Origin: an uncultured bacterium
GTDB lineage: Bacteria; Bipolaricaulota; Bipolaricaulia; Bipolaricaulales; Bipolaricaulaceae
Assembly: GCA_937122485.1 (NCBI GenBank)
Contig: CAKZKH010000189.1
Span: 1-21,343, forward strand
Reading direction: 5' to 3'
DNA length: 21,343 bases
The translations under genes and the position numbers were made by a program. A model generated the notes under the pieces. The model ran no database searches. It was not told the origin of the DNA and saw nothing but the letters and a program-made list of their open reading frames with translations. Positions 989 to 21,103 of the stretch are shown piece by piece (within the stretch, counting starts at the first letter, position 1; each line of letters opens with the position of its first letter).

Positions 989-1495
989 CTACAAGCGCCA
1001 AGCGGCCACGATCTCCCCGAAAAACAGGGTGTGGAGGTTGCCCCCGCTGTAGTACTTGGTGCGGACGGAGGCGTCGAGGAGGCCGGCGGGTACAAGGGAC
1101 GTGCGCACCAGGACCCGGCACTCGTAGGCCACGTCGCAGCCGGCGATGATGGGCGGCCCCACTTCGGCCCCGGCCAGGGTCTGAAGCCGCAGGGCCTTGA
1201 ACTTGTCCACCTCCCGGCCGGAGTGGCTCCCGCAGAAAGCCAGCTCCTCCTTCATCTTCCCAATCGGCACGCACACGGTGAACTCCCCGGTTCGTTCGAT
1301 CACGCCGTGGGTGTAGCGGGTGGGGCGCACCAAGGCCAAGAACATGGGTTTCCCCCACACCGTGCCGATCAGGCCCCAGCCGATGGTCATGGCGTTGGGG
1401 CGACCGGCTTCGGCCCCCACCAGGAACGCCCCATCCCCGTGCAAAAGCTGCTCCTCCACGTCGGCAAACTTCGTCCAGGGCGCAATTCTCTTCAT
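989..1495 (-). CDS. Flavin reductase-like protein (FMN-binding split-barrel domain), 168 aa.
   Basis: Translation MKRIAPW...NAMTIGWGLIGTVWGKPMFLALVRPTRYTHGVIERTGEFTVCV resembles the flavin reductase domain (PF01613). ATG 1495-1493 overlaps the TGA of the upstream kinase gene (ATGA). Confidence 0.8.
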   Translation of the reverse strand: MKRIAPWTKFADVEEQLLHGDGAFLVGAEAGRPNAMTIGWGLIGTVWGKPMFLALVRPTRYTHGVIERTGEFTVCVPIGKMKEELAFCGSHSGREVDKFKALRLQTLAGAEVGPPIIAGCDVAYECRVLVRTSLVPAGLLDASVRTKYYSGGNLHTLFFGEIVAAWRL

Positions 1496-3216
1496 CGTCG
1501 CCTCCCCATGGCCCGCTCCAGCGGGTTTGGAAAGTAGCCGGTCAGGATGCCACCCCCGATGAACTCCCGCAAGATGGACGTGGCAGGGATCTCCTCCCCG
1601 GGGTAAGGGGGCAGCCAGCGCACCTCCGCAAGAAGCCGCTCCGCCTCCAGCTGTACCTTGGCCTGCCGCACCCCCAGAAGCAAAGGTTCCACCCGCGGCC
1701 GCAGCACCGACCACTCGTACACCAGCGCCGAGTTGAACATCACGTCCGCCTGACCCTGGTAGGGGAAGATGAACCGCTTCTCCCCCCGCCGGACATTGCC
1801 CCACACCTGGAGGGTCACCTCCGCAGGGTACCCGCGGAAGCTGACGTCCCGCACCAACCGACGCAGCAAGCGGGTGTCCGTGGTGGACAGCCGCACGTAG
1901 TCGTCCAAGTTGAGCTGGGTCAGCGCGGAAACGTAGATTTTGAACGTCTCCTTGGGATCGAAACCTTCGGGGAGGATGGCCGGGTTGAGGCAGTGCAGCC
2001 CCTCCACCAGCAACAGGGCGTCTTCAGAAAGCTTCAGTTCCAGGCCGTCTTCCCTCCGGCCGGTGGGGAAGTCGAACCGGGGCAAGCGCACGGTCTGACC
2101 CGAAAACAGGGCCGCCATGTGTTCCTTGAACAGGGGGACATCGATGGCCGCCAGATCGTCGAAGTCCGTCAGGCCCCGCTGGGCCATTACCTCCCGGCTC
2201 AAGTAGTAGTCGTCCAAGGACACGGGGTAGGGCCGGAGCCCGAGGGCCAAAAGCTGGATGGCCAGCCGCTTGGTGAACGTGGACTTGCCGGCCGAAGAAG
2301 GACCGGCGATGAGCACCAGGCGGGGAAGCGGGGTGCGCCCCACGATCATCTCCGCGATCTGGGCGATCTTCTGGCTGTGCAGGGCCTCGGAAACAAGGAT
2401 CACCTCCGTCATCCGCCCCGTGCGCACCGCCTCCCGGACGGTCCAGGCGTCGTACACCCCCAACAGCTCCAGCCACCGCCCGTACTCGTCGAACACCTGG
2501 AGCAAGGGATGGTAGTCCTCGGTGGGGCCCAGTTCCGTGGGCTTCTCCCGGCGGGGGAAGCGGAGGATGAACCCCTGGTGGTAGGGGGTAAGGGCGAAGT
2601 ACCGCAGGTACCCGGTGGAGGGGACCATGGGGCCAAAGAAGTGATCGCGCAGCGGCCCCAAGGTGTAAATCGGAACCGGTTGAGCGTTCCAGCAGGCCTG
2701 GAGCATTTCGCCCTTGGTGCCCTGACCCTGACCTCGGAGAACCTCCCCCACCTCCGCCAAGGGGAGAAGCTCTTTTCCAATGGGCAGGTTTCGCTCCACA
2801 AGGGCCCGCATGTGGGTCTCCACCCGGCGGAGCTCGCTGGGGGTGAAGGGGGGCCGGCCGGCCAAGCGGCAATAGTACCCCCCGAAAGGCACGGAGTGGT
2901 CGATGATCAGGCGCACCCCGGGGAACAGCTCCCGCACCGCCGCGGCCAAAAGGAAGCTCAGCGAGCGGGTGTAGATGCGGATCCCTTCGGAGTCGGTGAG
3001 GAAAACAGGGCGGACCTCGGCGTCCTCCCTCAACGGCTCGGACAGCTCCTGGAGCTTGCCGTCCACCACAGCGGCCATGGCCGGAATCAGGGGATCGGGG
3101 TAGGCCCCGGCCACAAACTCCTCCAGGGGCGTGCCCACCGTTCCTTCCAAAATCCGACCATCCGGAAAGCGCGCCTGGACCGTATCCCTAAGCTGAGCAG
3201 GCCATACCTTGGCCAT
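1492..3216 (-). CDS. Uridine kinase/phosphoribulokinase-family P-loop kinase with a long N-terminal extension (TGS/ThrRS-N-like), 574 aa.
   Basis: The Walker A motif GPSSAGKSTFTKRL is followed by PRK-family residues (LDDYY, DFDDL). The domain architecture resembles the ~550-aa uridine-kinase family proteins. The start was chosen at ATG 3216 (MAKVWPAQL) rather than the longest ORF. Confidence 0.7.
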   Translation of the reverse strand: MAKVWPAQLRDTVQARFPDGRILEGTVGTPLEEFVAGAYPDPLIPAMAAVVDGKLQELSEPLREDAEVRPVFLTDSEGIRIYTRSLSFLLAAAVRELFPGVRLIIDHSVPFGGYYCRLAGRPPFTPSELRRVETHMRALVERNLPIGKELLPLAEVGEVLRGQGQGTKGEMLQACWNAQPVPIYTLGPLRDHFFGPMVPSTGYLRYFALTPYHQGFILRFPRREKPTELGPTEDYHPLLQVFDEYGRWLELLGVYDAWTVREAVRTGRMTEVILVSEALHSQKIAQIAEMIVGRTPLPRLVLIAGPSSAGKSTFTKRLAIQLLALGLRPYPVSLDDYYLSREVMAQRGLTDFDDLAAIDVPLFKEHMAALFSGQTVRLPRFDFPTGRREDGLELKLSEDALLLVEGLHCLNPAILPEGFDPKETFKIYVSALTQLNLDDYVRLSTTDTRLLRRLVRDVSFRGYPAEVTLQVWGNVRRGEKRFIFPYQGQADVMFNSALVYEWSVLRPRVEPLLLGVRQAKVQLEAERLLAEVRWLPPYPGEEIPATSILREFIGGGILTGYFPNPLERAMGRRR

Positions 3217-3320: not shown

Positions 3321-3917
3321 TTAGGAAAGCAGCACCGCGGCCCCGGAGGGGACGGCCCGACCACGGTAGAGGAAGGTCAGCTGGCGGAACGCCGCCCAGA
3401 GGTCAAATTCGTTCAGGGCGCTTACGCAATCCTTGGGGACGATCACCCGCAACCCCCGCAGGGCCGCCGAGCCCGCGGCGTGAAGAACACAGATGTTCGC
3501 CACCGTGCCCACCACCACCAGGTTCTTCACGCCCCACTTCCTCAAGATCTCGTCGAGCTCGGTGCGGAAAAACGGGTCGTAGGTGGTCTTGCGCACCACG
3601 GGCTCGCCCTCCCTTGGGGCAAGCTCAGCCACGACTTCCGCACCCCAGGTCCCCTCCACCACGTGGGGCGGCCAAATCCGGAACTCCGGATCGTCGGGCC
3701 GGTGCCAGTCCTGGGTGAAGGCGACCCTCACCCGTTGGGCCCGGGCCCGGGAAAGAAGTGCAGAAATTGGCTGGATCGTGGCCGGGGCGGCGGGGACGAA
3801 CAGGGCCCCGTTTTCCCGCACGAAGTCGTTTTGCATGTCCACCACCAGGAGGGCCGTCTCCTCCCGCCGCAGCTCGATCCTCTCCGTCCAGGGGATTTCT
3901 GGAACTTCCACGTTCAT
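3321..3917 (-). CDS. pncA: Nicotinamidase (isochorismatase-family cysteine hydrolase), 198 aa.
   Basis: The isochorismatase fold includes LLVVDMQNDF and a catalytic Cys in VVVGTVANICVLHAA. RBS GGTGGAGGTG precedes ATG 3917. The start overlaps the pncB stop (ATGA). Confidence 0.8.
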   Translation of the reverse strand: MNVEVPEIPWTERIELRREETALLVVDMQNDFVRENGALFVPAAPATIQPISALLSRARAQRVRVAFTQDWHRPDDPEFRIWPPHVVEGTWGAEVVAELAPREGEPVVRKTTYDPFFRTELDEILRKWGVKNLVVVGTVANICVLHAAGSAALRGLRVIVPKDCVSALNEFDLWAAFRQLTFLYRGRAVPSGAAVLLS

Positions 3918-5215
3918 TTTGCCACCTCCACCAAGGCCTGGAGCTTGGACGAAAGCCGAACCGGGTAGTCGGGAACTTCGCAGGGGGAAAGGTCGGCCAG
4001 CTCCGGAGGAAGACCAAAAAGACTCTGGCGGACCTCTTCTCGGCGTCTGGCGAGTTCGAGTTTGGAAACGAGCCTTTCCCCGCGGACAAAAACCTTCTTG
4101 AGGAGCGGGCGACCCGGGCCTTTTTCCTCGTCTAAGGTTACTAGGTCCGCAAAGCCCTCCCGCCAGACCTGGCACTTTCCCGGAAGGGTGAGTTTCCCTG
4201 GGCTCTTTTTCATCCGCGGCCCCTTTTCGTCCTCGACGAGTTTGTAGACCCCGCCCAGGGCGGGAACGTCCCAGGACACCCCGAGCCGGGTTCCCACCCC
4301 GTACCCCCAAGCCACACCCCCCCGCCTCCGGAATTCTAGGATCCGGTACTCATCGAGATCGCCGGACACGAAAACCCTGATCTCCGGAAGGCCGGCCTCG
4401 TCCAGGATCCTTCGCACCTCCCGGGATAAGACTGCGAGGTCGCCGGAGTCCAGGCGAACTCCCACCACGGTCTTCCCCGTTTCTTTGGCCTCCTTGGCCG
4501 CTCGAACGGCGTTTCTTGCGCCCTGGATGGTGTCGTAGGTGTCGATGAGGAGAACCGGGTGGGGATGGTCTTCCACGAAGGTCCGGAAAGCCGAGAGTTC
4601 GTCGGGGAAGGAGAGGACGTAGGAGTGGGCCATGGTGCCCACCACGGGGATCCCGTAGAGCTTTCCTGCCAGGACGTTGGAGGTGCCGTGGAAGCCGGCG
4701 AGGAAGCTGGCCCGGGCGGCGCGGAGGGCCGCTTCCACCCCGTGGTCCCGACGGGGACTGAAGTCCACCACCACCGCCTCCGGCCCTGCCGCCACCAAGA
4801 TCCGCGCGGCCTTGGAAGCCACCAGGGTCTCGTAGTTGAGGACGTTGAGAAGCAAAGTCTCGATGAGCTGGGCTTGGATCCGCGGGGCGGTCACCGTCAG
4901 CAACGGCTCGTTAGGAAAAGCAATCTCCCCCTCGTCCATGGCCCAGACCTCTCCGGAAAACCGGAAGCTTGCCAGGTAGTCCAAAAAGGACCGGTGGAAG
5001 AGGCCCAAGCCCTGAAGGTAATCCAGGTCTTCTTCGGCAAACCGGAACTGTGGCAGAGCCTCCAGGAACGTGTCCAGGCCGGCGAAGAGGAGGAAGCGAC
5101 GGTGGGGGACCGGGGAGCGGACGAAGTAGGCGAAGGTGGCCTCCTGGTCCATCCCCTGTCGGAAGTAGGAGTAGGCCATGGTGAGCTCGTAAAGGTCCAG
5201 GAAAAGCCCGGGCAT
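3914..5215 (-). CDS. pncB: Nicotinate phosphoribosyltransferase, 433 aa.
   Basis: The N-terminus MPGLFLDLYELTMAYSYFRQG and internal GTMAHSYV motifs are characteristic of NAPRTase. It is translationally coupled to pncA. Confidence 0.9.
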   Translation of the reverse strand: MPGLFLDLYELTMAYSYFRQGMDQEATFAYFVRSPVPHRRFLLFAGLDTFLEALPQFRFAEEDLDYLQGLGLFHRSFLDYLASFRFSGEVWAMDEGEIAFPNEPLLTVTAPRIQAQLIETLLLNVLNYETLVASKAARILVAAGPEAVVVDFSPRRDHGVEAALRAARASFLAGFHGTSNVLAGKLYGIPVVGTMAHSYVLSFPDELSAFRTFVEDHPHPVLLIDTYDTIQGARNAVRAAKEAKETGKTVVGVRLDSGDLAVLSREVRRILDEAGLPEIRVFVSGDLDEYRILEFRRRGGVAWGYGVGTRLGVSWDVPALGGVYKLVEDEKGPRMKKSPGKLTLPGKCQVWREGFADLVTLDEEKGPGRPLLKKVFVRGERLVSKLELARRREEVRQSLFGLPPELADLSPCEVPDYPVRLSSKLQALVEVAK

Positions 5216-5467
5216 GCCAACTGAATTCTAGCGGAAGGAACCGGCAACGCTCAGCCCTTGGACTCCTCGGCCTAGCACGGCCTTACCCAAGGAGAGCCAC
5301 CAGGGGAAAGTTCTTTGGGGCGATGTTTGCGCCGAAAGTTGCGACCGGGCAACCGGTGCTCGTTCACCCTCTCCTACGTAGGGGGCAAGGCCCTTGGGAC
5401 AGGGGATTCACAGTAGGGGTAAGGTTCCCTGCCTACCGAACCGTGCGCTCATACCAAGAAGGCGCGT

Positions 5468-6007
5468 TCACACCACGGCGGCGTAGGTCTGGAAGTCCCG
5501 CGGGGAGAAGAGCACAAACCGGACTTCGCCGAACGCGCCGGGATGCGCCACCAAGTAAGCACGCACCGTTTGGAGGGCGACCCGGGCCGCCTCCGCCACG
5601 GGGTAACCGTACACCCCGGTGGAGATGCTGGGAAAAGCCAGGGAACGGATCCCTCGCGTTCGAGCGAGTTTTAGGCATGAGCGATAGGCCCGAGCCAAGA
5701 GCTCAGGCTCCCCGTGCGTTCCCCCTCGCCAAACAGGCCCCACGGTGTGGATCACCCAACGGGCGGGAAGCTTCCCTCCTGGGGTGATCACCGCGTCCCC
5801 TGTAGGCAGAGGACCGCGTTCCCTACGGATTTGGGCCGCAGCCTCCGTCACCGCAGGCCCACCGGCGCGGTGGATGGCCCCGGAAACCCCACCGCCCGGG
5901 GTCAGGTCCGGGTTGGCTGCATTCACGATCGCTTCTACATCCTGCTGGGTAATGTCCCCTTGGACGAGCACGAGCTTGGTCCCGGCCACCTCGACCTCAT
6001 GCCTCAT
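5468..6007 (-). CDS. Macro-domain protein (ADP-ribose / O-acetyl-ADP-ribose processing, YmdB/Af1521-like), 179 aa.
   Basis: Sequence GDITQQDVEAIVNAANPDLTPGGGVSGAIHRAGG...ISTGVYGYP is a typical macro domain. The start was set at ATG 6007, preceded by AAAGGGGGGAGT, rather than at the upstream in-frame ATG 6037. Confidence 0.85.
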   Translation of the reverse strand: MRHEVEVAGTKLVLVQGDITQQDVEAIVNAANPDLTPGGGVSGAIHRAGGPAVTEAAAQIRRERGPLPTGDAVITPGGKLPARWVIHTVGPVWRGGTHGEPELLARAYRSCLKLARTRGIRSLAFPSISTGVYGYPVAEAARVALQTVRAYLVAHPGAFGEVRFVLFSPRDFQTYAAVV

Positions 6008-6078
6008 ACTCCCCCCTTTCGCCCTAGAACCACACAAGAACCATCAGCTCCAAAGCCCAACGCTCCTGCTCCACGCGT

Positions 6079-6879
6079 TCACGCTGCACCGGGAACAGTT
6101 TGGCGGGCCAACTGAACCAGCCCCTGGGCCAACTCCAGTGCTTCCCGGGCCCGTGAGGGGCGAATGCGCTCGCGGGGAGCCAAAGCCGCGCGGTCCCCCA
6201 TGTGCAGGGAGACGTTCTCCATGCGGAGGAGGGTCTTGAACCTGCGGAACCCGGGGCTGCGGCGCACGGCCCGGGCCAAAAGATCGGAAATCCCCTCCCC
6301 TTCGAGCACCGAAGGGTCCTCACCCTGGACGACAAGCCAAGCCCGCAGGGCCCGATCGCAGGCGGTCAACGCCGCAGCGAAAGCCCAGTCGTAGACCCTC
6401 TGGCCCAACAGGAGTTCGGCCACGGAAAGATCGTGCTCGGCCTGCTCCAGGTACCGCCGCGCTTCCTCCCAGTCCACCTCCACCTCGCGCGCCCCCACCC
6501 CGGCCCGCAGCTCGTCCAGCATCCCCTCGTCGGGGAACCCCAGGCGATGGGCAAGCTCGTGGTACACCGTGCGCCGAATTTGGTCCCTCAGCTCCTCGGG
6601 AGTCTGGCACCATTCCTCCAGCGGCCGCTTGTAGATGACGAGCGTCCCCTCAAAATCCCTGGGGTTTTCGGCCTCGAGGATGGAGGGGCCCTCGTACATC
6701 CCAAACGGGTAGTCCGGGGGCACCAGCCCCCACTCCCGCATGAGCTCGTCCTCAGGGTAGTCCTCGACGCGGACCTCCAGCCCCTGGAGGTAGGGCCGAA
6801 ACGAGGAGGGCAGTTCCTCCAGGGCCCCGCGCACCAGGGCCTGGAAGGCCGCGGGCGTCAAGTGCACCGGCATACCCAA
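6079..6879 (-). CDS. Fusion protein of 266 aa. The N-terminal ~125 aa is a Zincin_1/DUF1025-type minimal metallopeptidase (HELAH). The C-terminal ~130 aa is a HEPN domain.
   Basis: YHELAHRLGFPDEGMLDEL is the signature C-terminus of the small zincin-like family. DWEEARRYLEQAEHDLSVAELLL...AFAAALTACDRALRAWLV...SRAREALELAQGLVQ follows the HEPN (PF05168-like) helical pattern. The two domains lie in one continuous ORF. Confidence 0.7.
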   Translation of the reverse strand: MGMPVHLTPAAFQALVRGALEELPSSFRPYLQGLEVRVEDYPEDELMREWGLVPPDYPFGMYEGPSILEAENPRDFEGTLVIYKRPLEEWCQTPEELRDQIRRTVYHELAHRLGFPDEGMLDELRAGVGAREVEVDWEEARRYLEQAEHDLSVAELLLGQRVYDWAFAAALTACDRALRAWLVVQGEDPSVLEGEGISDLLARAVRRSPGFRRFKTLLRMENVSLHMGDRAALAPRERIRPSRAREALELAQGLVQLARQTVPGAA

Positions 6880-6900
6880 AAATTATAGAATGCGGGGGGG
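6880..6900. promoter_or_regulatory. AT-rich divergent promoter region. On the minus strand, TATAAT lies 7 nt before the zincin-HEPN ATG, suggesting a leaderless transcript. On the plus strand, TAGAAT is followed by a G-rich SD for the flotillin gene.
   Basis: The sequence aaaaattatagaat is the only AT-rich patch between the divergent genes. On the minus strand it reads TTCTATAATTTTTGGGATG. On the plus strand TAGAAT is 17 nt before ATG 6909, with GGGGGGGTGA as SD. Confidence 0.35.
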
Positions 6901-6908
6901 TGATCCCG

Positions 6909-8873
6909 ATGGAGTTGTGGATTTGGGTGGCCGCAGGCGTTTTGCTGGTGTTGCTCGTGCCCTCCATTCGCATCATTGGCCCGGACCAGGTGGGTCTGGT
7001 CATCAAGCGGTTGAGCTTCAAGAAGCTCAAGGAGGGCGAGGTGGTGGCCTTCCAGGGGGAGGCGGGATACCAAGCGGATCTTCTCCTCCCTGGCTGGCGG
7101 TTCAAGCTGTGGATTCTGTACAGCGTGAGCAAGCACCCCATGGTGCAGATCCCAGCCGGCCAGATCGGGGTGGTGATTGCCCAGGTGGGGAAGCCTTTGG
7201 ACCCTGGAGCCAAGTCCGGGGTGTACAAGCCCGAGTTCGGGGATTTCCGGGACCTCCGCAAGTTCATGGGACTGGGAGGACAGAAGGGGGTGCAACGGCC
7301 GGTGCTTCCCCCGGGGACTGTGGCCCCCATTCATCCCGTGGGGTTCTTGGTGATCACCAAGGACCGGGTGTACGGGGTGCCCATCTCCCCGGAGCTGCAG
7401 GCGGAAAAGAAGTTGGGGCCGGCCACGTGGGGCCTCAAGCCCGAGGACTTCACCGTCACCGTGATCGAACCCCTCATGCGCCAGCTCCCCGACGGGACCT
7501 CCAAGCGGGTCGACGTGGTGGGAATTGTGGAAACGTTCGAAGGCCCACCTCTGGAGCCGGGGGACATTGCCGGGCGGCTGGAGGGATTCTCCGACCTTGC
7601 GGACCTGGAACGGAACGGGGCCGACGACCTCACCTTGGTCAACGCCGTCCTCAACAGCAAGAACAAGTTGCACAACAACTACCAGGACTACCAAGCGTTC
7701 CTCGACCACGGGGGCCGCATCGGCATCCAACACGACCCCCTCCTCTACGGGGCCTACAACCTCAACCCCTTCCTCGTACGCGTGCGGCGGGTGCCCATGG
7801 TGGTGGTGGAGCAGGGGGAAGTGGCGGTGATCAAGTCCTACGTGGGCCTGGAGCCGCGGGACGTGTCCGGGGCGGAGTTCCGGTTTGGGACCCTTGTACG
7901 GCCCGGCCACCGCGGGATCTGGCGGGAGCCGTTGCGCACCGGCAAGTACGCCCTCAACCCGTACTGCTACGACCACGAGATCGTCCCCACCTACATCCTC
8001 ACCCTTAACTGGGCTCTGCAAACCTCCGAGGCCCACAAGCTCGACCGCCACCTCAGCCAAATCGTGGCCAAAAGCCGCGAGGGGTTCGTGTTCAGAATCG
8101 ACCTCCAGGTGCAGATTCACATCCCCGACGTCCAGGCCCCCCGGGTGATCTCCGCCGTGGGCACGATGGCCAACCTGGTGGATGAAGTGCTCCAGGCCGC
8201 GGTGGGCAACCACTTCCGAGACAAGCTGCAAAGCATGCCGGCCATCATGTTCATCGAGAACCGCCAGCGCGTCCAAGAAGAGGCCCTCCACCACATCAGC
8301 CAGCAGCTCAAGGTGTACAACGTCGACACCCGGGGCGTGTTCATCCAGGACGTCATCCTCCCCGATCAACTCGTGGAGGTGCTCACCCAGCGGGAGATCG
8401 CCAACCAGCAAATTCAGACCTACCGCAAGCAGCAAGAGGCCGAGACCGTGCGCATTGAAACGGAGAAACAGCGGGGCACAGCGGACCAGCAGGCCGAGCT
8501 GGCTCGGTCCATGGTGGGCATCGAGATCGCCAGAAACCAGGCCTCGGCCCGCGTGGCCCAAGCCGAGGGGGAAGCCACGTACCTGGAGAAGGTGGGCACG
8601 GCCAAGGCGGCCGAGGTGCGGGCCGTGGGCCTGGCCCGGGCCGAGGCCTACGCCAAGCAGGTCCAAGCCCTGGGGGCGGACAACACCGCCTTGGTCAACG
8701 TCATCACCGCCCTGGCCACCAGCCAGCAGCCGTTCGTGCCCGAGGTGTACGTGGGGGGCAACGAGGCCCGCGGCGCTGCCGACGCTCTTTACGCCACCCT
8801 CACAGGACTCCTGCGCAAGGGGGGTCTGTCGGCCGTCTTGGGCCCAGGGGAGGGCAAAACCAGCGCCACGTAA
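6909..8873 (+). CDS. Flotillin-family SPFH/band-7 membrane protein, 654 aa, with an N-terminal TM helix, tandem SPFH-like regions and a C-terminal coiled coil.
   Basis: The N-terminal TM is MELWIWVAAGVLLVLLV. SPFH-like segments begin at PDQVGLVIKR and MVVVEQGEVAVIKSY. The long Ala/Gln/Glu-rich coiled-coil tail (QTYRKQQEAETVRIETEKQRGTADQQAELAR...) is typical of flotillin or YqiK. Confidence 0.85.
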   Translation: MELWIWVAAGVLLVLLVPSIRIIGPDQVGLVIKRLSFKKLKEGEVVAFQGEAGYQADLLLPGWRFKLWILYSVSKHPMVQIPAGQIGVVIAQVGKPLDPGAKSGVYKPEFGDFRDLRKFMGLGGQKGVQRPVLPPGTVAPIHPVGFLVITKDRVYGVPISPELQAEKKLGPATWGLKPEDFTVTVIEPLMRQLPDGTSKRVDVVGIVETFEGPPLEPGDIAGRLEGFSDLADLERNGADDLTLVNAVLNSKNKLHNNYQDYQAFLDHGGRIGIQHDPLLYGAYNLNPFLVRVRRVPMVVVEQGEVAVIKSYVGLEPRDVSGAEFRFGTLVRPGHRGIWREPLRTGKYALNPYCYDHEIVPTYILTLNWALQTSEAHKLDRHLSQIVAKSREGFVFRIDLQVQIHIPDVQAPRVISAVGTMANLVDEVLQAAVGNHFRDKLQSMPAIMFIENRQRVQEEALHHISQQLKVYNVDTRGVFIQDVILPDQLVEVLTQREIANQQIQTYRKQQEAETVRIETEKQRGTADQQAELARSMVGIEIARNQASARVAQAEGEATYLEKVGTAKAAEVRAVGLARAEAYAKQVQALGADNTALVNVITALATSQQPFVPEVYVGGNEARGAADALYATLTGLLRKGGLSAVLGPGEGKTSAT

Positions 8874-15960: not shown

Positions 15961-16752
15961 CTACAGCTTCAGTTTCGCCAGGTTCTCGGGAACAAAGTAC
16001 GCGTCCGGGATGTCCGCGGCTGACCTCTCGCTCAGGCCAATCGTCGCCTTGGCCCCCTTCACCACGTCTTCCATCACCAACCGCGCCGGACGCAGCCCCA
16101 ACGCATCGCGCACCAGCTCGGGCACCGTCAAAACCCGGGTCAGCTTGCCAGTTCGGTCGAAGAACTCCACCCGCAGGACGATGAACTCCCCTTGGTACAC
16201 CCACAGGTTCAGCCGTGCCCAGTCGGCCTTGGGGTCCGTGGCCGTAAGCACAAGCTTCCAGACCCGCACCCCCTGCAAGGTTTCCTCACCGGTAAGCTCG
16301 GCCCTGTACCCCTGCCGGTAGGTGAACCCCCGGGCCACGTCCTCGTACGTGAAACCACTGCCTGCGATGAACTCCCCTTTCCGCTCGGTCTCCCCCACCA
16401 GTTCCTTGAGGATCTCCAGATCGGGGAGCCACAGCCAAATCCGGGAAGGCCCTCCTTGGGGGAGGTGGGCCAGGAACAGGGTGCCGGAAACTTCCTCAGG
16501 GAGGACGTAAAGGAGGAGGGTCTTGGCGCTCCCGTCGGGGTACCCCTTGGCCCAAACCCGGAAGGCGAAATCACGCGGGGCCTGGCGGGGCTCCTCCACC
16601 CGGACCTCGAGGGCCAGGTACATGCTCCCCTTTCCCGTTCCCAAGAAGCTCTGCTCTTCCACCCTCTCCAGGATTTGATCGGCCGTGAGGGCCTGGGCCA
16701 TCGCCACGGCCGCCCCAACCGCCACCGCCATCGCCAAAACAACGCTCTTCAT
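15961..16752 (-). CDS. Outer-membrane lipoprotein-sorting (LolA-like) protein, 263 aa, of the type usually partnered with MMPL/RND exporters.
   Basis: Signal peptide MKSVVLAMAVAVGAAVAMAQA. The beta-rich sequence resembles LolA-like proteins encoded next to MMPL genes. The start overlaps the MMPL stop (ATGA). Confidence 0.7.
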   Translation of the reverse strand: MKSVVLAMAVAVGAAVAMAQALTADQILERVEEQSFLGTGKGSMYLALEVRVEEPRQAPRDFAFRVWAKGYPDGSAKTLLLYVLPEEVSGTLFLAHLPQGGPSRIWLWLPDLEILKELVGETERKGEFIAGSGFTYEDVARGFTYRQGYRAELTGEETLQGVRVWKLVLTATDPKADWARLNLWVYQGEFIVLRVEFFDRTGKLTRVLTVPELVRDALGLRPARLVMEDVVKGAKATIGLSERSAADIPDAYFVPENLAKLKL

Positions 16753-19121
16753 CGCAAACCTCCTTCATCACCGTCTCCACCGGGGGAATGGGCCCGGTGG
16801 ACCGCAACCCGGGGGCGCACCGGCCGCCATGCCGGCAGCACCCATCTGGGCGGGATCCATGCCAGCACCGCGGGGAGGATGAACAACGCCCCCAGCAGGC
16901 TGGTGATCATGGTGACCGCCACCAGCCACCCAAAGGTCACCAGGGCCCCGAACCGCGACAGCAACATGACCAAGAAGCCCAAGGTGAGCGTCACGGCGTT
17001 GACCACAATGGCCTTGCCGGCAAAGCGGAACGTCTCTTCCAGTCCTTGGGCGTGGGAGAGTCCCTGGCCCCGGGCCCGCCGGTACCGGGCAAGGAAGTGC
17101 ACCGCGTAGTCCACCCCAATCCCCACCGAAAGGCTGGCGATCATGATGGTGGCCATGTCCAAGTAGGCCCCGGCGTAGCCCATGATCCCGAAGTTCCCGC
17201 CCACTGCCACCACCAACGGGACCAACGACAGAAGCCCCGCACCCCAAGAAAGCATGAGGAGGGAAACAATGGCCCCCACCGCGCCAAAGCTCGCCCCCAA
17301 GCTCACCAGCTGAGACCGGATGATCTTCTTGGAAAGCTGGATGTACAGAGCAGGAGAACCCGTGACGTAGTAGGAGACCACGGGGGCCGGCTTCTCTTGG
17401 GCCAAGAACTCCTCCACGGCCTGGGTCAGCTGCTCATAGCCCGACAGCCCCACCGAGCGGACGCGGGCCGAAACCCGGCCCTGGGCAAAGTCCCGGGTGG
17501 CCAGGCTGGACGTGACTTCCCCTCCCCCGGACTCGTAGAGGATGAGGGTCTGGGCCACAGCCCGCGACGTGGTGGGGAGGGTGTAAAAGGCCGGGTCATC
17601 GCCCCTCAACGTGAAGTAGGTCTCCTTCACCAGGTCGGCCAAGGACGAAGTGGCCCCCACCTCCGGCCGGGCCTCCAGGAAAGCCTGCAACCGATCCATG
17701 AACCGCAACACCTCGGGGTCCTTCAGCCCATCCCGCCGCCCGGTGTCCACCACCACCGACAGCTCCTGGCTCCCCCCAAACTGCCGTTCCACGAACCGCA
17801 GGCCCTCAACCACAGGGGAATCGGCGCGAAAGTACTTGGTGAGGTCGGACTCCACCCGGACCCAGGGAACGCCCGCCAGAAGCGCGCCGAGCACGCCCAC
17901 AGCAAGCCCCAAGGTGACCACCGGCCGCCGGGCCAGGAAGCGAGAACTCCGGTCCGCCAACCCGTCAAACCAAGGCACGGAGCGGGTGCGCTTGGGCCGG
18001 GGGGGGAGGAGGGCCAACACCGCCGGGATGAGCGTGAGGGCCAGCACAAACGCCACGACGGTCCCCACAGCAGCGAACAACCCAAACTCCCGTGTGGGAA
18101 CCAGGAACGACGTGAGCAAGGTGAGGAACCCCGCGGCCGTGGTCAAAGCAGCCCCGGCCAGCGGCAGGAGCATCTCCAGGGCCACGCGCTCGGCCAGCTC
18201 CCTTCGCTCCCCCCCAGCCCGGGCAAGCTCGGCGTGATCGTTCACCACGTGAATTCCATAGGCGCTCCCCACCGCCACCAGCAACACAGGCATGAACGTG
18301 GAGATCATCGTGAGCTTTGCTCCCACCAAAGCCATCAGGCCCATCGTCCACACCAAGGCCACCAGGACCACGCCCAAGGGAAGAAGAACGCCTCGCAAGC
18401 TTTGGAAGCTCAGGAACAGCACGGCCACCACCACGGCCACCACCACGGGGAGGAGCAACGCCAAGTCCTGACGCATGTTGCGGTTCACGTACACCAGGAA
18501 GGCCGCGTCCCCGGAGATGTAGAACTTCTCCGGTTGGGCGTACCGGGCCTCCAACGCCTTGAGGTGGTCCAGCACCCGCCCCATCGCTTCCTCGTTGTCC
18601 TCAAGGTCAGGGGTCACCCGGAGGACAATCACGGCTCCGGACCCGTCGGCGCGCACCAGGGTGTCCCGCACCATCCGCTCGGCCAACACCTTCTCCCGGA
18701 ACAGGGCCACGTCCTCCTCGCTCTCGGGGGGACGAGGGAGGATGGGGCGCACGGTGATGGCAGTGGCCGTGCCCTCCACGATTTTGACGGTGGCGGGGGA
18801 AACGACTTCTTCCACCAAACGCTCATCCACCAGCACCTGGAGCTCGGTGGTCAGGGCGTAGAGTTTCCCCAGCGAAGGCAGGTCGAAGATTGTGCCTCCT
18901 TCTTCCGCCGCCATGGCGAACATGAACAGGGACTGGCCTCCAAACACCTCGCGGGCGACCTCGTACTGGGCCACCACAGGGTCCCCCTGGGGGAGCATTT
19001 TGGAGTAGTCGGCTTCGAACCCCAGCCGGGGAAGGAACAAGGCAAACACAGCGGTGATGGCGGCGATCGAGGCCAGCGTGGCTTTGGGGTGACGGATGAG
19101 GAACCGCAGGACCCGGGTCAC
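16749..19121 (-). CDS. MMPL-family RND transporter, 790 aa, a putative lipid or lipoprotein exporter.
   Basis: Twelve-TM topology with two large periplasmic loops. Conserved MMPL blocks include SYGIHVVNDHAE, GVDYAVHFLARYRR and the GxxxD motifs. Confidence 0.9.
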   Translation of the reverse strand: MTRVLRFLIRHPKATLASIAAITAVFALFLPRLGFEADYSKMLPQGDPVVAQYEVAREVFGGQSLFMFAMAAEEGGTIFDLPSLGKLYALTTELQVLVDERLVEEVVSPATVKIVEGTATAITVRPILPRPPESEEDVALFREKVLAERMVRDTLVRADGSGAVIVLRVTPDLEDNEEAMGRVLDHLKALEARYAQPEKFYISGDAAFLVYVNRNMRQDLALLLPVVVAVVVAVLFLSFQSLRGVLLPLGVVLVALVWTMGLMALVGAKLTMISTFMPVLLVAVGSAYGIHVVNDHAELARAGGERRELAERVALEMLLPLAGAALTTAAGFLTLLTSFLVPTREFGLFAAVGTVVAFVLALTLIPAVLALLPPRPKRTRSVPWFDGLADRSSRFLARRPVVTLGLAVGVLGALLAGVPWVRVESDLTKYFRADSPVVEGLRFVERQFGGSQELSVVVDTGRRDGLKDPEVLRFMDRLQAFLEARPEVGATSSLADLVKETYFTLRGDDPAFYTLPTTSRAVAQTLILYESGGGEVTSSLATRDFAQGRVSARVRSVGLSGYEQLTQAVEEFLAQEKPAPVVSYYVTGSPALYIQLSKKIIRSQLVSLGASFGAVGAIVSLLMLSWGAGLLSLVPLVVAVGGNFGIMGYAGAYLDMATIMIASLSVGIGVDYAVHFLARYRRARGQGLSHAQGLEETFRFAGKAIVVNAVTLTLGFLVMLLSRFGALVTFGWLVAVTMITSLLGALFILPAVLAWIPPRWVLPAWRPVRPRVAVHRAHSPGGDGDEGGLR

Positions 19122-19567
19122 TGGGCGTCCACCCCCACCAAATAGTTCAACCGTTGCAGATACCCGGAGAGGAACAGAACGTACACGTCTTCATGCGAGC
19201 CGCGCACCTGCCGTCGGCCCTCGAAGGCCTGCACGAGGCCCCCAGCCAAAGCGTTGTAGGCCTCGGGCAGGGGGTCAGGAAGGTAGTTCACCGGGGCTGG
19301 GGTACAGAACCAAATGAGCTCCGTCTGGGGAGGGATCACAATGGCAAAGACAAAAGGCTCTTCGGTCCACGGTTCGGTAGGGAACCCCGCCAGGGCCTTG
19401 ACGGTGACCAACCCGGTGGCCCGCACGGCCCGCACAAACGCCAAGATCCTCAGGGATTCCTCCATGGTTCCGGTCTGATCCACGATGAGCAGGCGAAGGG
19501 TTTGCTGGCCCAGACTGCCCCATCCCAACGCCAGCAGGGTCACGACCAATGCAAGCGCTTTCCTCAC
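19118..19567 (-). CDS. Secreted hypothetical protein of 149 aa, with a GTG start and signal peptide, lying between TetR and MMPL.
   Basis: VRKALALVVTLLALGWGSLGQQ looks like a signal peptide. GTG 19567 overlaps the TetR stop (GTGA), and the gene's stop overlaps the MMPL ATG. An alternative ATG at 19600 would overlap TetR by 37 nt. Confidence 0.55.
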   Translation of the reverse strand: MRKALALVVTLLALGWGSLGQQTLRLLIVDQTGTMEESLRILAFVRAVRATGLVTVKALAGFPTEPWTEEPFVFAIVIPPQTELIWFCTPAPVNYLPDPLPEAYNALAGGLVQAFEGRRQVRGSHEDVYVLFLSGYLQRLNYLVGVDAQ

Positions 19568-20178
19568 AGAGCCTCCATTTCCGGGCGCAGGCCGCGCCAC
19601 ACCAAGTCCGCCAGTTCCTTGGGCCCCAGGCGGCGGAACTCCCCGGCCACGGCGTCTTCGCCCACCGCGCGGTCGGTTACAGCTTCCACCAGACCCAAGA
19701 GGGCGTAGGCCAGAAACAAAGGGTGGCCTTTACGGATTTCCCCCCGGTCCATGGCCTGGCGGAGAAGGTCGGCCACAATTTGGGCGTACTCCTCCCGCAA
19801 CTGGGCCACAGCCTCCTGCAAGGAAGGAACCTCCGCCCGGCGGGCCCGACCCAGCAGGCCGACCTCCTTGCCCCCGGCCAGGGCCTGGAAGTGGGTGGTC
19901 ATGACCTGGCGGAGAACCTCCACCCCAGGCAAGCCTTGGCGGAGGAGGTGCTGGGCTGCCTGGAGGTACCGCTCGTACTCGGCCCGCACGGCGGCCAAGA
20001 AGATCTGTTCTTTGGAGGGGAAGTAGTGATACAGGGCGCCGATGGACACGCCGGCTGCCCGGGCGATGTCGCGCATCCCCGTGCCATGGAAGCCCAAGCG
20101 GGCAAAGGCGTCACTGGCCGCGGCCATGACGCGTTCCACGAGGGGGAGGTCGCTCTCCGAACGAACGTTCGTTCGCAC
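19564..20178 (-). CDS. TetR/AcrR-family transcriptional regulator of about 204 aa. The start is ambiguous: GTG 20178 is given here, ATG 20127 is the alternative.
   Basis: The HTH GMRDIARAAGVSIGALYHYFPSKEQIF and helix 1 LVERVMAAASDAFARLGF match the TetR N-terminal domain. Comparison with TetR proteins suggests helix 1 begins before the first ATG, which favours GTG 20178. However, the 18-bp palindrome at 20158-20175 would then fall inside codons 2-7. Confidence 0.7.
   Translation of the reverse strand: MRTNVRSESDLPLVERVMAAASDAFARLGFHGTGMRDIARAAGVSIGALYHYFPSKEQIFLAAVRAEYERYLQAAQHLLRQGLPGVEVLRQVMTTHFQALAGGKEVGLLGRARRAEVPSLQEAVAQLREEYAQIVADLLRQAMDRGEIRKGHPLFLAYALLGLVEAVTDRAVGEDAVAGEFRRLGPKELADLVWRGLRPEMEAL
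20158..20175. promoter_or_regulatory. Perfect 18-bp palindrome CGAACGAACGTTCGTTCG, a candidate TetR operator.
   Basis: The sequence is identical to its reverse complement. It is 50% GC in a ~68% GC background. It lies 24 nt after the zinc-ribbon gene stop and 30 nt upstream of the TetR ATG 20127. Confidence 0.5.
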
Positions 20179-20198
20179 GCCCCGTTTGTACCCGCCCT

Positions 20199-20579
20199 CT
20201 ACCTCCCTGTCAAGCCCTCCCCACACGAACTGCACTTCCACACGATTTCCCCGCTCCACAAGTTCCACCGCACCGGAACCAGCACCCCCTTCCCACACTT
20301 CGGGCAGGGAATTCCTAGTTCCACCCCACTCAGCTGTGCTTGAAGCCCGCCCTCCACCCTGGTTGTCCCCCGCATGCTGAGGGCCAGCTCCTGGGGAAAG
20401 CTCAACGTGACCTTGAGCTCGTCCAGCGGGGGAGCGAGCACCCCCGCCTGGATGGAGCCCTCCAGGCGGAGGACGAGTCCCCGCTGCTCAAGGCGCACCA
20501 ACACGAGGAGCAGGCCCGCCAGAAGCCCTACCACAACGAAGACAAGCACCAACCCCAACAGCTTTTCCCAGCGATCCAC
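20199..20579 (-). CDS. Small membrane-anchored protein of 126 aa, with an N-terminal TM helix and a C-terminal zinc-ribbon (CPKC...CSSC).
   Basis: Strong SD AAGGAGGGG lies 5 nt before GTG 20579. The TM segment is LLGLVLVFVVVGLLAGLLLVLV. The metal-binding pattern is C-x2-C-x20-C-x2-C. GC3 is about 83%. Confidence 0.5.
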   Translation of the reverse strand: MDRWEKLLGLVLVFVVVGLLAGLLLVLVRLEQRGLVLRLEGSIQAGVLAPPLDELKVTLSFPQELALSMRGTTRVEGGLQAQLSGVELGIPCPKCGKGVLVPVRWNLWSGEIVWKCSSCGEGLTGR

Positions 20580-20613: not shown

Positions 20614-20688
20614 CGCGCCCGGGAGGACTCGAACCCCCAACCCTCGGCTCCGAAGGCCGATGCTCTGGTCCTATTGAGCTACGGGCGC
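20614..20688 (-). tRNA. tRNA-Arg, anticodon TCG.
   Basis: Fold: GCGCCCG-TA-GCTC...GAGC-A-TCGGC-CTTCGGA-GCCGA-GGGTT-GGGGG-TTCGAGT-CCTCC-CGGGCGC-G. CCA is not encoded and a U6 run follows. Confidence 0.75.
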
Positions 20689-20765
20689 TGGGAGGAGCGA
20701 CGGGACTTGAACCCGCGACCGCCGCGGCCACAGCGCGGTGCTCTGCCAACTGAGCTACGCTCCCC
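20689..20765 (-). tRNA. tRNA-His (anticodon GTG), with an encoded G-1 and 3' CCA.
   Basis: G(-1)-GGGAGCG-TA-GCTC-AGTTGGCA-GAGC-A-CCGCG-CTGTGGC-CGCGG-CGGTC-GCGGG-TTCAAGT-CCCGT-CGCTCCT-C-CCA. The extra 5' G opposite C73 is the His identity element. Confidence 0.85.
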
Positions 20766-20768
20766 GGG

Positions 20769-20842
20769 TACGCCCGGGAGGACTCGAACCCCCAACCCGT
20801 GGGTTAGAAACCCACCGCTCTGTCCGGTTGAGCTACGGGCGC
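20769..20842 (-). tRNA. tRNA-Arg, anticodon TCT.
   Basis: GCGCCCG-TA-GCTC...GAGC-G-GTGGG-TTTCTAA-CCCAC-GGGTT-GGGGG-TTCGAGT-CCTCC-CGGGCGT-A. The acceptor and T arms are nearly identical to those of the Arg(TCG) gene. Confidence 0.8.
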
Positions 20843-20916
20843 TGGAGCGGGTAACGGGAATCGAACCCGTGTCACTGGCTTGGAAGGCCAGCGCTCTACC
20901 ATTGAGCTATACCCGC
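20843..20916 (-). tRNA. tRNA-Gly (anticodon TCC) with an encoded CCA.
   Basis: GCGGGTA-TA-GCTC-AATGGTA-GAGC-G-CTGGC-CTTCCAA-GCCAG-TGAC-ACGGG-TTCGATT-CCCGT-TACCCGC-T-CCA. Confidence 0.85.

Positions 20917-21031: not shown

Positions 21032-21103
<72 letters not shown>

Follow-up and report, generated by a model that had tools for sequence, protein, structure and literature searches.

The closest described relatives of the gene analysed here are, for its N-terminal half, the mini-zincins of the DUF1025/Zincin_1 family (Pfam entry, PF06262; provisional MEROPS family, M94; PDB entry ID, 3e11) such as Acel_2062, and, for its C-terminal half, the HEPN-T proteins TT1696 (1ufb), TM0613 (1o3u), and sacsin (3o10). 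Known DUF1025 members are single-domain proteins of ~110–125 residues, and the architectures given in the 2014 description of the family are the standalone form, a form with TPR repeats, and a form with a transmembrane segment and a septum-formation domain (PMC3890501). In the window (the whole analysed stretch of 21,343 nucleotides, contig CAKZKH010000189.1 of an uncultured bacterium of the Bipolaricaulota), a gene on the minus strand carries a HEPN domain instead, attached directly after the third zinc ligand of a Zincin_1 domain. Like the mini-zincins described so far, the fusion protein has the Asp-zincin motif and fold, and is acidic and predicted to be cytoplasmic, with no signal peptide. 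With moderate confidence, we interpret it as a two-domain cytoplasmic protein specific to Candidatus Bipolaricaulota (Acetothermia), namely a lineage-specific mini-zincin hydrolase bearing a degenerate HEPN-fold module for binding, targeting, or dimerisation, its gene opening a leaderless operon that also holds genes for a MacroD protein and a PRK-family kinase. The gene, its domains, and the relevant motifs are as follows (positions in the window; the sequence-only reading is an earlier annotation of this DNA made from its letters alone).

6079–6873, minus strand: Zincin_1–HEPN fusion gene, 264 residues from the ATG at 6873, stop codon at 6079–6081
6520–6789, minus strand: mini-zincin domain (DUF1025/Zincin_1, provisional MEROPS family M94), residues 31–120
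6529–6561, minus strand: HELAHRLGFPD, zinc-binding and catalytic motif of the form HExxHxxGxxD
6106–6462, minus strand: HEPN-T fold domain (PF05168), residues 140–258, predicted to be non-catalytic
6187–6204, minus strand: HMGDRA, the position homologous to the R-x4-H site of HEPN domains in alignments to TRYPDAH of TT1696
6202–6225, minus strand: RMENVSLH, proposed as an Rx6H motif in the sequence-only reading, not the homologous site
6882–6887, minus strand: TATAAT, a −10-like box 8 nt upstream of the fusion ATG at 6873

The mechanically called open reading frame (ORF; 6079–6879, minus strand) opens at TTG 6879; ATG 6873 is the start in public gene calls agreeing with the 264-residue form (GCA_036803185.1, contig DAIRUU010000009.1, and an ENA assembly) and in protein P0001, which is 100% identical. 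In Pfam searches, both domains of the product scored above their gathering cut-offs (Zincin_1: E-value, 1.2e-18; 67.3 bits against 22.4; HEPN: E-value, 1.4e-6; 28.9 bits against 22). A family profile of the fusion matched the 3e11 mini-zincin structure (E-value, 1.5e-18) and TT1696/1ufb (E-value, 2.3e-5 with the full family profile and 2.2e-7 with a HEPN-only profile). The structure model predicted by AlphaFold2 (AF2) has a mean predicted local distance difference test score (pLDDT) of 86 and a predicted template-modelling score (pTM) of 0.57, with linker residues 128–132 below a pLDDT of 50. When this model was compared with known structures by Foldseek, the zincin half resembled 3e11 (E-value, 1.1e-5; target TM-score, 0.72), and the HEPN half resembled TT1696 (1ufb; TM-score, 0.76) and the HEPN domain of sacsin (3o10; TM-score, 0.73), with further matches to ST0689, AF_0298, and TM0613 (TM-scores of 0.72–0.76 over 1ufb, 3o10, 1wol, and 2hsb). 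The view of the sequence-only reading that one ORF joins an HExxH metallopeptidase domain to a C-terminal HEPN domain is thus borne out, each domain exceeding its Pfam cut-off and being backed by its predicted fold. The HEPN half shares with the HEPN-T proteins not only the helical-bundle fold (TM-scores, 0.73–0.76) but also the helix-1 signature E-x2-R-x3-Q-A and a P-x2-R element preceding the last helix.

In comparison with 3e11, the zincin half of the fusion family contains a highly conserved insert (EWGL-x-PP-x-YPFG, residues 43–60), which is found in a weaker form in the closest standalone Zincin_1 proteins. At the end of the domain, an R125-x-G127 element, within residues 120–129, occupies the place where standalone Zincin_1 proteins terminate in an aromatic residue; that terminal aromatic has been proposed as a substitute for the Met-turn, and is absent from the fusion family, which has Ala or another residue followed by an invariant Gly (family consensus ELR-x-G, where the standalone relatives finish in LGYD or LGYG). 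The segments encoding the insert and M120/R125-x-G127 lie within 6496–6873 of the window.

Conservation of the two active sites was evaluated from column counts over 63 family members of the fusion. In the zincin half, no variation is seen at H107, E108, H111, G114, or M120, and all 63 members have Asp or Glu at position 117, in keeping with the HExxHxxGxxD motif as defined for the family (PMC3890501). In the HEPN half, two independent profile alignments, with TT1696 and TM0613, put the R-YPDA-H site of the HEPN-T proteins over H226-MGDR-A231, where the fusion family reads D-M-G-D-x-G. While TT1696 has the complete R-YPDA-H, the Arg position of the fusion family is mostly occupied by Asp, Gly, or Glu (Asp in 41, Gly in 9, Glu in 7, Ala in 4, and His in 2 members, the window sequence having His) and the His position by Gly (53/63; Ala in the window sequence). 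The sequence-only reading had taken RMENVSLH for the HEPN domain's Rx4-6H motif; the alignments place the true site at H-MGDR-A, and the last His of RMENVSLH, H226, is His in no member other than the window sequence and the one identical to it (2/63), being Asp in 41. None of the His residues in the HEPN half is invariant among the 63 members, H149 being present in 51 and replaced by Gly, Ala, Ser, or Asp in 11. With the zinc site invariant and both residues of the Rx4H site lost, the zincin half appears active and loss of RNase activity is predicted for the HEPN half.

The residues that are invariant in the HEPN half (E139, R142, Q146, A147, P235, and R238) align to identical residues in TT1696 and the sacsin HEPN domain, HEPN-T proteins that are inactive or uncharacterised, suggesting that they belong to the HEPN-T scaffold; they do not look like catalytic residues specific to the family. 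As a candidate for the second conserved acidic residue of active HEPN RNases, in an Ex3[KR]-type motif of helix 1, the invariant E139-x2-R142 differs in spacing and aligns to identical residues in sacsin and TT1696. These observations bear on the idea that the HEPN half is a non-canonical RNase resembling the AbiV and AF0298-type HEPNs, which lack the motif His, and acting through alternative residues (e.g., H149 with R142, R203, or R238) and processed or regulated by the zincin half. HEPN families that use an alternative His located N-terminally to the motif have indeed been described (Anantharaman et al., PMC3710099), and the HEPN half does contain invariant Arg residues, which speak for such an activity. 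The alternative-His families, however, retain the basic residue of the motif, where the fusion has Asp, Gly, or Glu; H149 is itself replaced in the 11 members mentioned above; and the invariant residues are shared with sacsin and TT1696, which points to the scaffold. The net charge is −14 for the zincin domain and −1.6 for the HEPN domain, and an acidic protein whose HEPN domain is not basic poorly fits a basic or general RNA binder. We therefore consider an alternative RNase site very unlikely.

The HEPN half is most likely a non-catalytic module for substrate or ligand binding and/or dimerisation, connected by a flexible linker to the N-terminal mini-zincin, which would presumably be the catalytic part, a metallopeptidase or an amidohydrolase. 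A parallel is provided by the kanamycin-type nucleotidyltransferases, which likewise combine a catalytic N-terminal domain with a degenerate C-terminal HEPN-fold domain; in such C-terminal fusions to nucleotidyltransferases, the HEPN domains have lost the Rx4-6H motif and have been called potential substrate-binding domains (PMC3710099). The catalytic partner there is a pol-beta domain and here a zincin; the likeness is one of architecture and not of whole-protein homology. The fusion HEPN also differs from the HEPN-T proteins in that no MNT nucleotidyltransferase is adjacent or fused to it, the zincin taking that place. Small zincins joined to a non-catalytic partner domain for substrate selection or signal sensing are also found in IrrE/ImmA (COG2856) and SprT/Wss1. 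These belong to other zincin families, and the fusion has no helix-turn-helix or GAF domain and no evident DNA-binding features.

The combination of the two domains is rare. When 1.84 billion representative proteins were searched with a profile, 1,234 matched at E-values of 1e-10 or below; among the 150 of these matches that were listed, the only ones to cover zincin and HEPN alike are P0056, P0065, P0066, and the fragment P0067, the remaining ones aligning over the zincin half only. The statement of the sequence-only reading that zincin and HEPN modules are normally separate proteins accordingly holds, with about 4 of the 1,234 representative clusters being full-length among the matches listed. 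At 90% identity, the fusion forms ~60 clusters, nearly all of them from metagenome-assembled genomes (MAGs) of Candidatus Bipolaricaulota/Acetothermia, with a few divergent members (39–47% identity) from MAGs labelled Planctomycetota. Neither HEPN nor another Pfam domain was detected in the C-terminally extended Zincin_1 proteins P0110, P0135, P0200, P0088, P0150, and P0188. The fusion is not mentioned in the DUF1025 family description (PMC3890501), in the HEPN survey (PMC3710099), or in the papers returned by a full-text literature search, and an automated label already given by JGI reads 'predicted Zn-dependent protease with MMP-like domain/HEPN domain-containing protein'. No phage copies were found, and plasmid matches cover the zincin half only; a comparison with PADLOC-DB v2 gave no family at E-values of 1 or below. 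The fusion is a previously undescribed architecture of two known domains, essentially confined to one phylum.

The genes and elements surrounding the fusion gene are as follows.

6008–6078, minus strand: spacer of 71 nt between the fusion gene and the macro gene, holding the ribosome-binding site GGGGGGAG before the macro ATG
5468–6007, minus strand: MacroD/YmdB-type macro-domain gene, 179 residues, predicted O-acetyl-ADP-ribose deacetylase/mono-ADP-ribosylhydrolase
3914–5215, minus strand: pncB, nicotinate phosphoribosyltransferase (NCBIfam NF006696, 530 bits against 503)
3321–3917, minus strand: isochorismatase-fold hydrolase, probable nicotinamidase pncA (Pfam E-value, 7.5e-45)
1492–3216, minus strand: PRK/uridine-kinase-family kinase, 574 residues, the most constant downstream partner (19 of 24 complete loci)
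6909–8873, plus strand: divergent SPFH/flotillin-like gene, 654 residues by public calls, with an alternative GTG start at 6900

The standalone macro-domain gene that the sequence-only reading had placed 71 nt downstream of the fusion is confirmed at exactly that distance and in the same orientation, and its product is of the MacroD/YmdB type (Pfam Macro, E-value, 3.7e-46; NCBIfam O-acetyl-ADP-ribose deacetylase equivalog NF001664, 209 bits against a cut-off of 200), with the NAAN...GGGV and G-V-Y-G loops present (NAANPDLTPGGGVSGAI and STGVYGYP, respectively). Its neighbourhood was compared over 28 related loci, 24 of which contain the complete fusion gene. In crown Bipolaricaulota, xth (exonuclease III) and a nitrilase-family gene lie on one side, followed by the fusion gene, the macro gene, and the PRK-family kinase gene. 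Co-location of the fusion and macro genes recurs across genomes, the macro gene being next after the fusion in 17 of the 24 complete loci; its start overlaps the fusion end by 4, 14, or 17 nt (commonly 4 or 14) in 15 of these 17, to which the window with its 71-nt spacer is an exception, and the kinase gene often begins 2–10 nt past the macro gene. With HEPN detected and the two genes co-located, the finding survives the refuting conditions that the sequence-only reading had named. Only a PRK domain was detected in the kinase (a TGS label is our own reading of its N-terminus), and its matches to uridine-kinase/PRK models are weak and far below the equivalog cut-offs. The three genes would thus form a compact operon in the order of fusion, MacroD-type deacylase, and PRK-family kinase, which may well be co-transcribed.

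The macro gene is absent from five complete loci, in which the kinase gene directly follows the fusion gene (L002, L004, L009, L015, and L025, in agreement with the gene table of L034/L035), and likewise from the partial locus L022. In a neighbour-joining tree of the fusion protein, the macro-less loci are nested within macro-containing clades, indicating secondary loss of the macro gene, and the fusion retains every invariant residue in the lineages that have lost it. Beside the distant fusions L023, L027, and L036, neither the macro gene nor the kinase gene is found. The locus is inherited vertically at a fixed chromosomal position and is not mobile. In one related locus (L040, 5444–6308), the macro gene was left uncalled by JGI; a macro pseudogene was considered there and rejected as an annotation gap, the DNA being 100% identical to the window.

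The TATAAT box before the fusion gene was described in the sequence-only reading as an apparently leaderless promoter, a description that holds in view of its distance of 8 nt from the ATG and its conservation: of the 24 related loci, 19 have a TAnnAT hexamer (mostly TAGGAT or TACGAT) 6–9 nt 5′ of the fusion ATG, and a twentieth has it at 10 nt. This conserved spacing supports transcription from the box to give a fusion mRNA that is likely leaderless. The promoter was further said to be shared divergently with the flotillin gene. On the plus strand, TAGAAT at 6886–6891 overlaps the TATAAT of the fusion by 2 nt and stands 8 nt from the flotillin GTG at 6900, and public calls favour ATG 6909 as the flotillin start; sharing is hence fair as a description of the sequence, with the boxes overlapping by 2 nt, and in function is presumed. 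A further box, TAGAAT at 5225–5230, precedes the pncB ATG by 9 nt, so leaderless transcription may be common in this lineage, judging from the boxes at the fusion gene, at pncB, and possibly at the flotillin GTG 6900. A scan for the sigma-70 consensus gave no full −35/−10 promoter, and a single weak terminator-like hairpin was found, below the 4.6 expected by chance.

The pncB gene is separated from the macro gene by a 252-nt spacer, in which no Rfam match to a riboswitch or structured RNA was found at E-values of 1 or below and whose folding is not unusual (fold z-score, +1.2). Two features underlie the assignment of the next gene as pncA, namely a 4-nt overlap between its start and the pncB stop and the presence in its sequence of D/K/C and D-x-H...H residues; against the nicotinamidase equivalog, it scores 53.8 bits (cut-off, 174). 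That the locus lies next to NAD salvage is true in this genome; among 26 other related loci, pncB–pncA occurs in none, so NAD salvage is taken as a genome-specific insertion. On this comparison, pncB–pncA is a separate element with a putative promoter of its own, outside the conserved operon. A flotillin gene at the position seen here occurs elsewhere only in L017 (88% identity), and both pncB–pncA (3321–5215) and the flotillin gene (6909–8873) look like lineage-specific insertions into a conserved gene string.

The conserved overlap of the fusion and macro genes, extending to deep branches, raises the possibility that the fusion acts together with MacroD, to which it is translationally coupled, and maybe also with the PRK-family kinase, in one housekeeping pathway of ADP-ribose, NAD, or nucleotide metabolites. 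In such a scheme, the HEPN half would have as its ligand a nucleotide, a compound of the ADP-ribose type, or a substrate carrying ADP-ribose or an acyl group; the zincin half would hydrolyse that substrate or a partner, and MacroD would remove an ADP-ribose-linked group. Such a pathway is in line with the reported binding of nucleotides by the HEPN domain of sacsin, with the insertion of pncB–pncA into the same gene string here, between the macro and kinase genes, and with a distant fusion locus in which CinA and a LigT 2H-phosphoesterase are encoded a little further downstream. At that locus (L036, 3602–7488), four same-strand genes come after the fusion P0060 (45% identity); they encode a PUA/SAM methyltransferase, which we take to be RlmI-like, a response-regulator–PilZ protein, CinA, and LigT, and the other loci have none of them in this context. 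A theme of ADP-ribose or RNA ends drawn from CinA and LigT was dropped as anecdotal, since tblastn found neither in any other locus.

Several findings count against the same pathway. The macro gene is missing beside the fusion in the five complete Bipolaricaulota loci and the partial one nested in macro-containing clades, as well as beside the three distant fusions; pncB–pncA is in none of the 26 other loci, and CinA and LigT do not recur. Moreover, overlaps of same-strand genes are frequent in this compact genome (about 5 of 16 pairs in its gene table), and synteny with the upstream xth gene is about as well conserved as the adjacency of the fusion and macro genes; this adjacency alone is thus no proof of a functional partnership and may reflect shared ancestry. 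Six loci with standalone Zincin_1 genes (Tsukamurella, two Rhizobiaceae, Leisingera, Sphingomonas, and the P0070 MAG) have heterogeneous contexts with no HEPN, MNT, or macro gene as a neighbour. Altogether, a common ADP-ribose pathway is possible but unlikely. A more specific proposal, in which the fusion and the coupled MacroD form an unrecognised two-component module, with the RNase-dead HEPN domain recognising a protein or RNA end that is ADP-ribosylated, bears acyl-ADP-ribose, or is marked by a nucleotide, the zincin cleaving it, and MacroD erasing the mark, appears to us quite unlikely. The sequence-only reading had offered a housekeeping locus for NAD/ADP-ribose recycling as one of its two options; a housekeeping role fits better than the other option, discussed below, and the NAD-salvage part of it is weak in view of the distribution of pncB–pncA and the −10 box of pncB itself. 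In two of the standalone Zincin_1 loci, from Rhizobium/Sinorhizobium (L030, 3953–4390; L031, 3947–4381), the gene stands divergently beside an imuA–imuB–dnaE2 error-prone polymerase cassette, an adjacency that may link some DUF1025 proteins to DNA damage.

The other option was a toxin–antitoxin or abortive-infection module, in which a HEPN RNase toxin is checked or activated by the fused zincin and the macro protein serves as the antitoxin or ADP-ribose-processing partner, following the logic of DarTG or HEPN–MNT systems. The domain types are indeed the same (a macro domain and a HEPN domain), macro domains act as antitoxins in DarTG, and a tight, overlapping two-gene arrangement is typical of toxin–antitoxin pairs. 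In addition, a macro-less Bipolaricaulis relative (L034/L035, 1–4203) has a Type ISP restriction-modification gene and GmrSD_N two genes upstream of the fusion, which the other loci do not have. This option is nevertheless not supported. Both the Arg and the His of the Rx4-6H site are gone family-wide, with no invariant His left in the HEPN half; the macro protein is a MacroD equivalog and matches the PADLOC DarG model only with an E-value of 0.013 (13 bits); DarT (DUF4433) was not found among the called genes of the window, small unannotated ORFs not having been scanned exhaustively, nor was MNT (NTP_transf_2) among the neighbours of the fusion (flotillin, macro, pncB, pncA, and kinase genes); and the fusion has no PADLOC match. 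Unlike mobile and patchily distributed DarTG and HEPN–MNT systems, the locus is inherited vertically with its gene order fixed, full-length copies on phages or plasmids were not found, and the macro gene has been lost while the fusion retained all of its invariant residues. A protease-regulated HEPN toxin is thereby rendered highly improbable.

The interpretation of the fusion as a mini-zincin hydrolase with a degenerate HEPN module, presumably in a housekeeping role, remains the one that we favour, and a number of points weigh against it. The low pTM and the poorly predicted linker mean that the relative arrangement of the two domains is not defined by the model. Demonstrated activity has been reported for no DUF1025 protein (PMC3890501), and 'peptidase' is itself a prediction. 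The invariant charged residues of the HEPN half (E139, R142, R203, and R238) could form a ligand-binding or alternative catalytic site. The overlap of the fusion and macro genes in deep branches as well (~51–55% identity) hints at a functional partnership beyond plain housekeeping. Finally, the context comparison covers the 28 loci fetched.

The rest of the window is occupied by housekeeping genes, including xth, a D-Ala-D-Ala ligase gene (ddl), an aminotransferase gene, a DUF401 gene, LolA-like, MMPL, and TetR genes, and tRNA genes. A string on the minus strand (15961–20298) encodes a LolA-like lipoprotein carrier, an MMPL/RND-type transporter (790 residues), a small ORF, and a TetR regulator. 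Five tRNA genes form a cluster, four on the minus strand at 20614–20916 and one on the plus strand at 21032–21103.

The fusion is not a new class of system and opens no long-standing question. DUF1025/Zincin_1 has been described as an actinobacterial signature gene (PMC4255298). The family is widespread, yet although a structure has been solved, neither an activity nor a substrate has become known for it. If the two-component module outlined above were true, the orphan DUF1025/M94 family would for the first time have a functional lead, and HEPN domains would gain a new role other than that of a nuclease. HEPN domains are usually read as RNase toxins; here, the fusion is stable and passed on vertically, its HEPN site is lost, and its zinc site is invariant, a case that cautions against assigning a toxin or defence role from a HEPN match alone. 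Genomic context offers few hints of what DUF1025 enzymes might act on, and the constant operon partners of the fusion, MacroD and the PRK-family kinase, are some of these.

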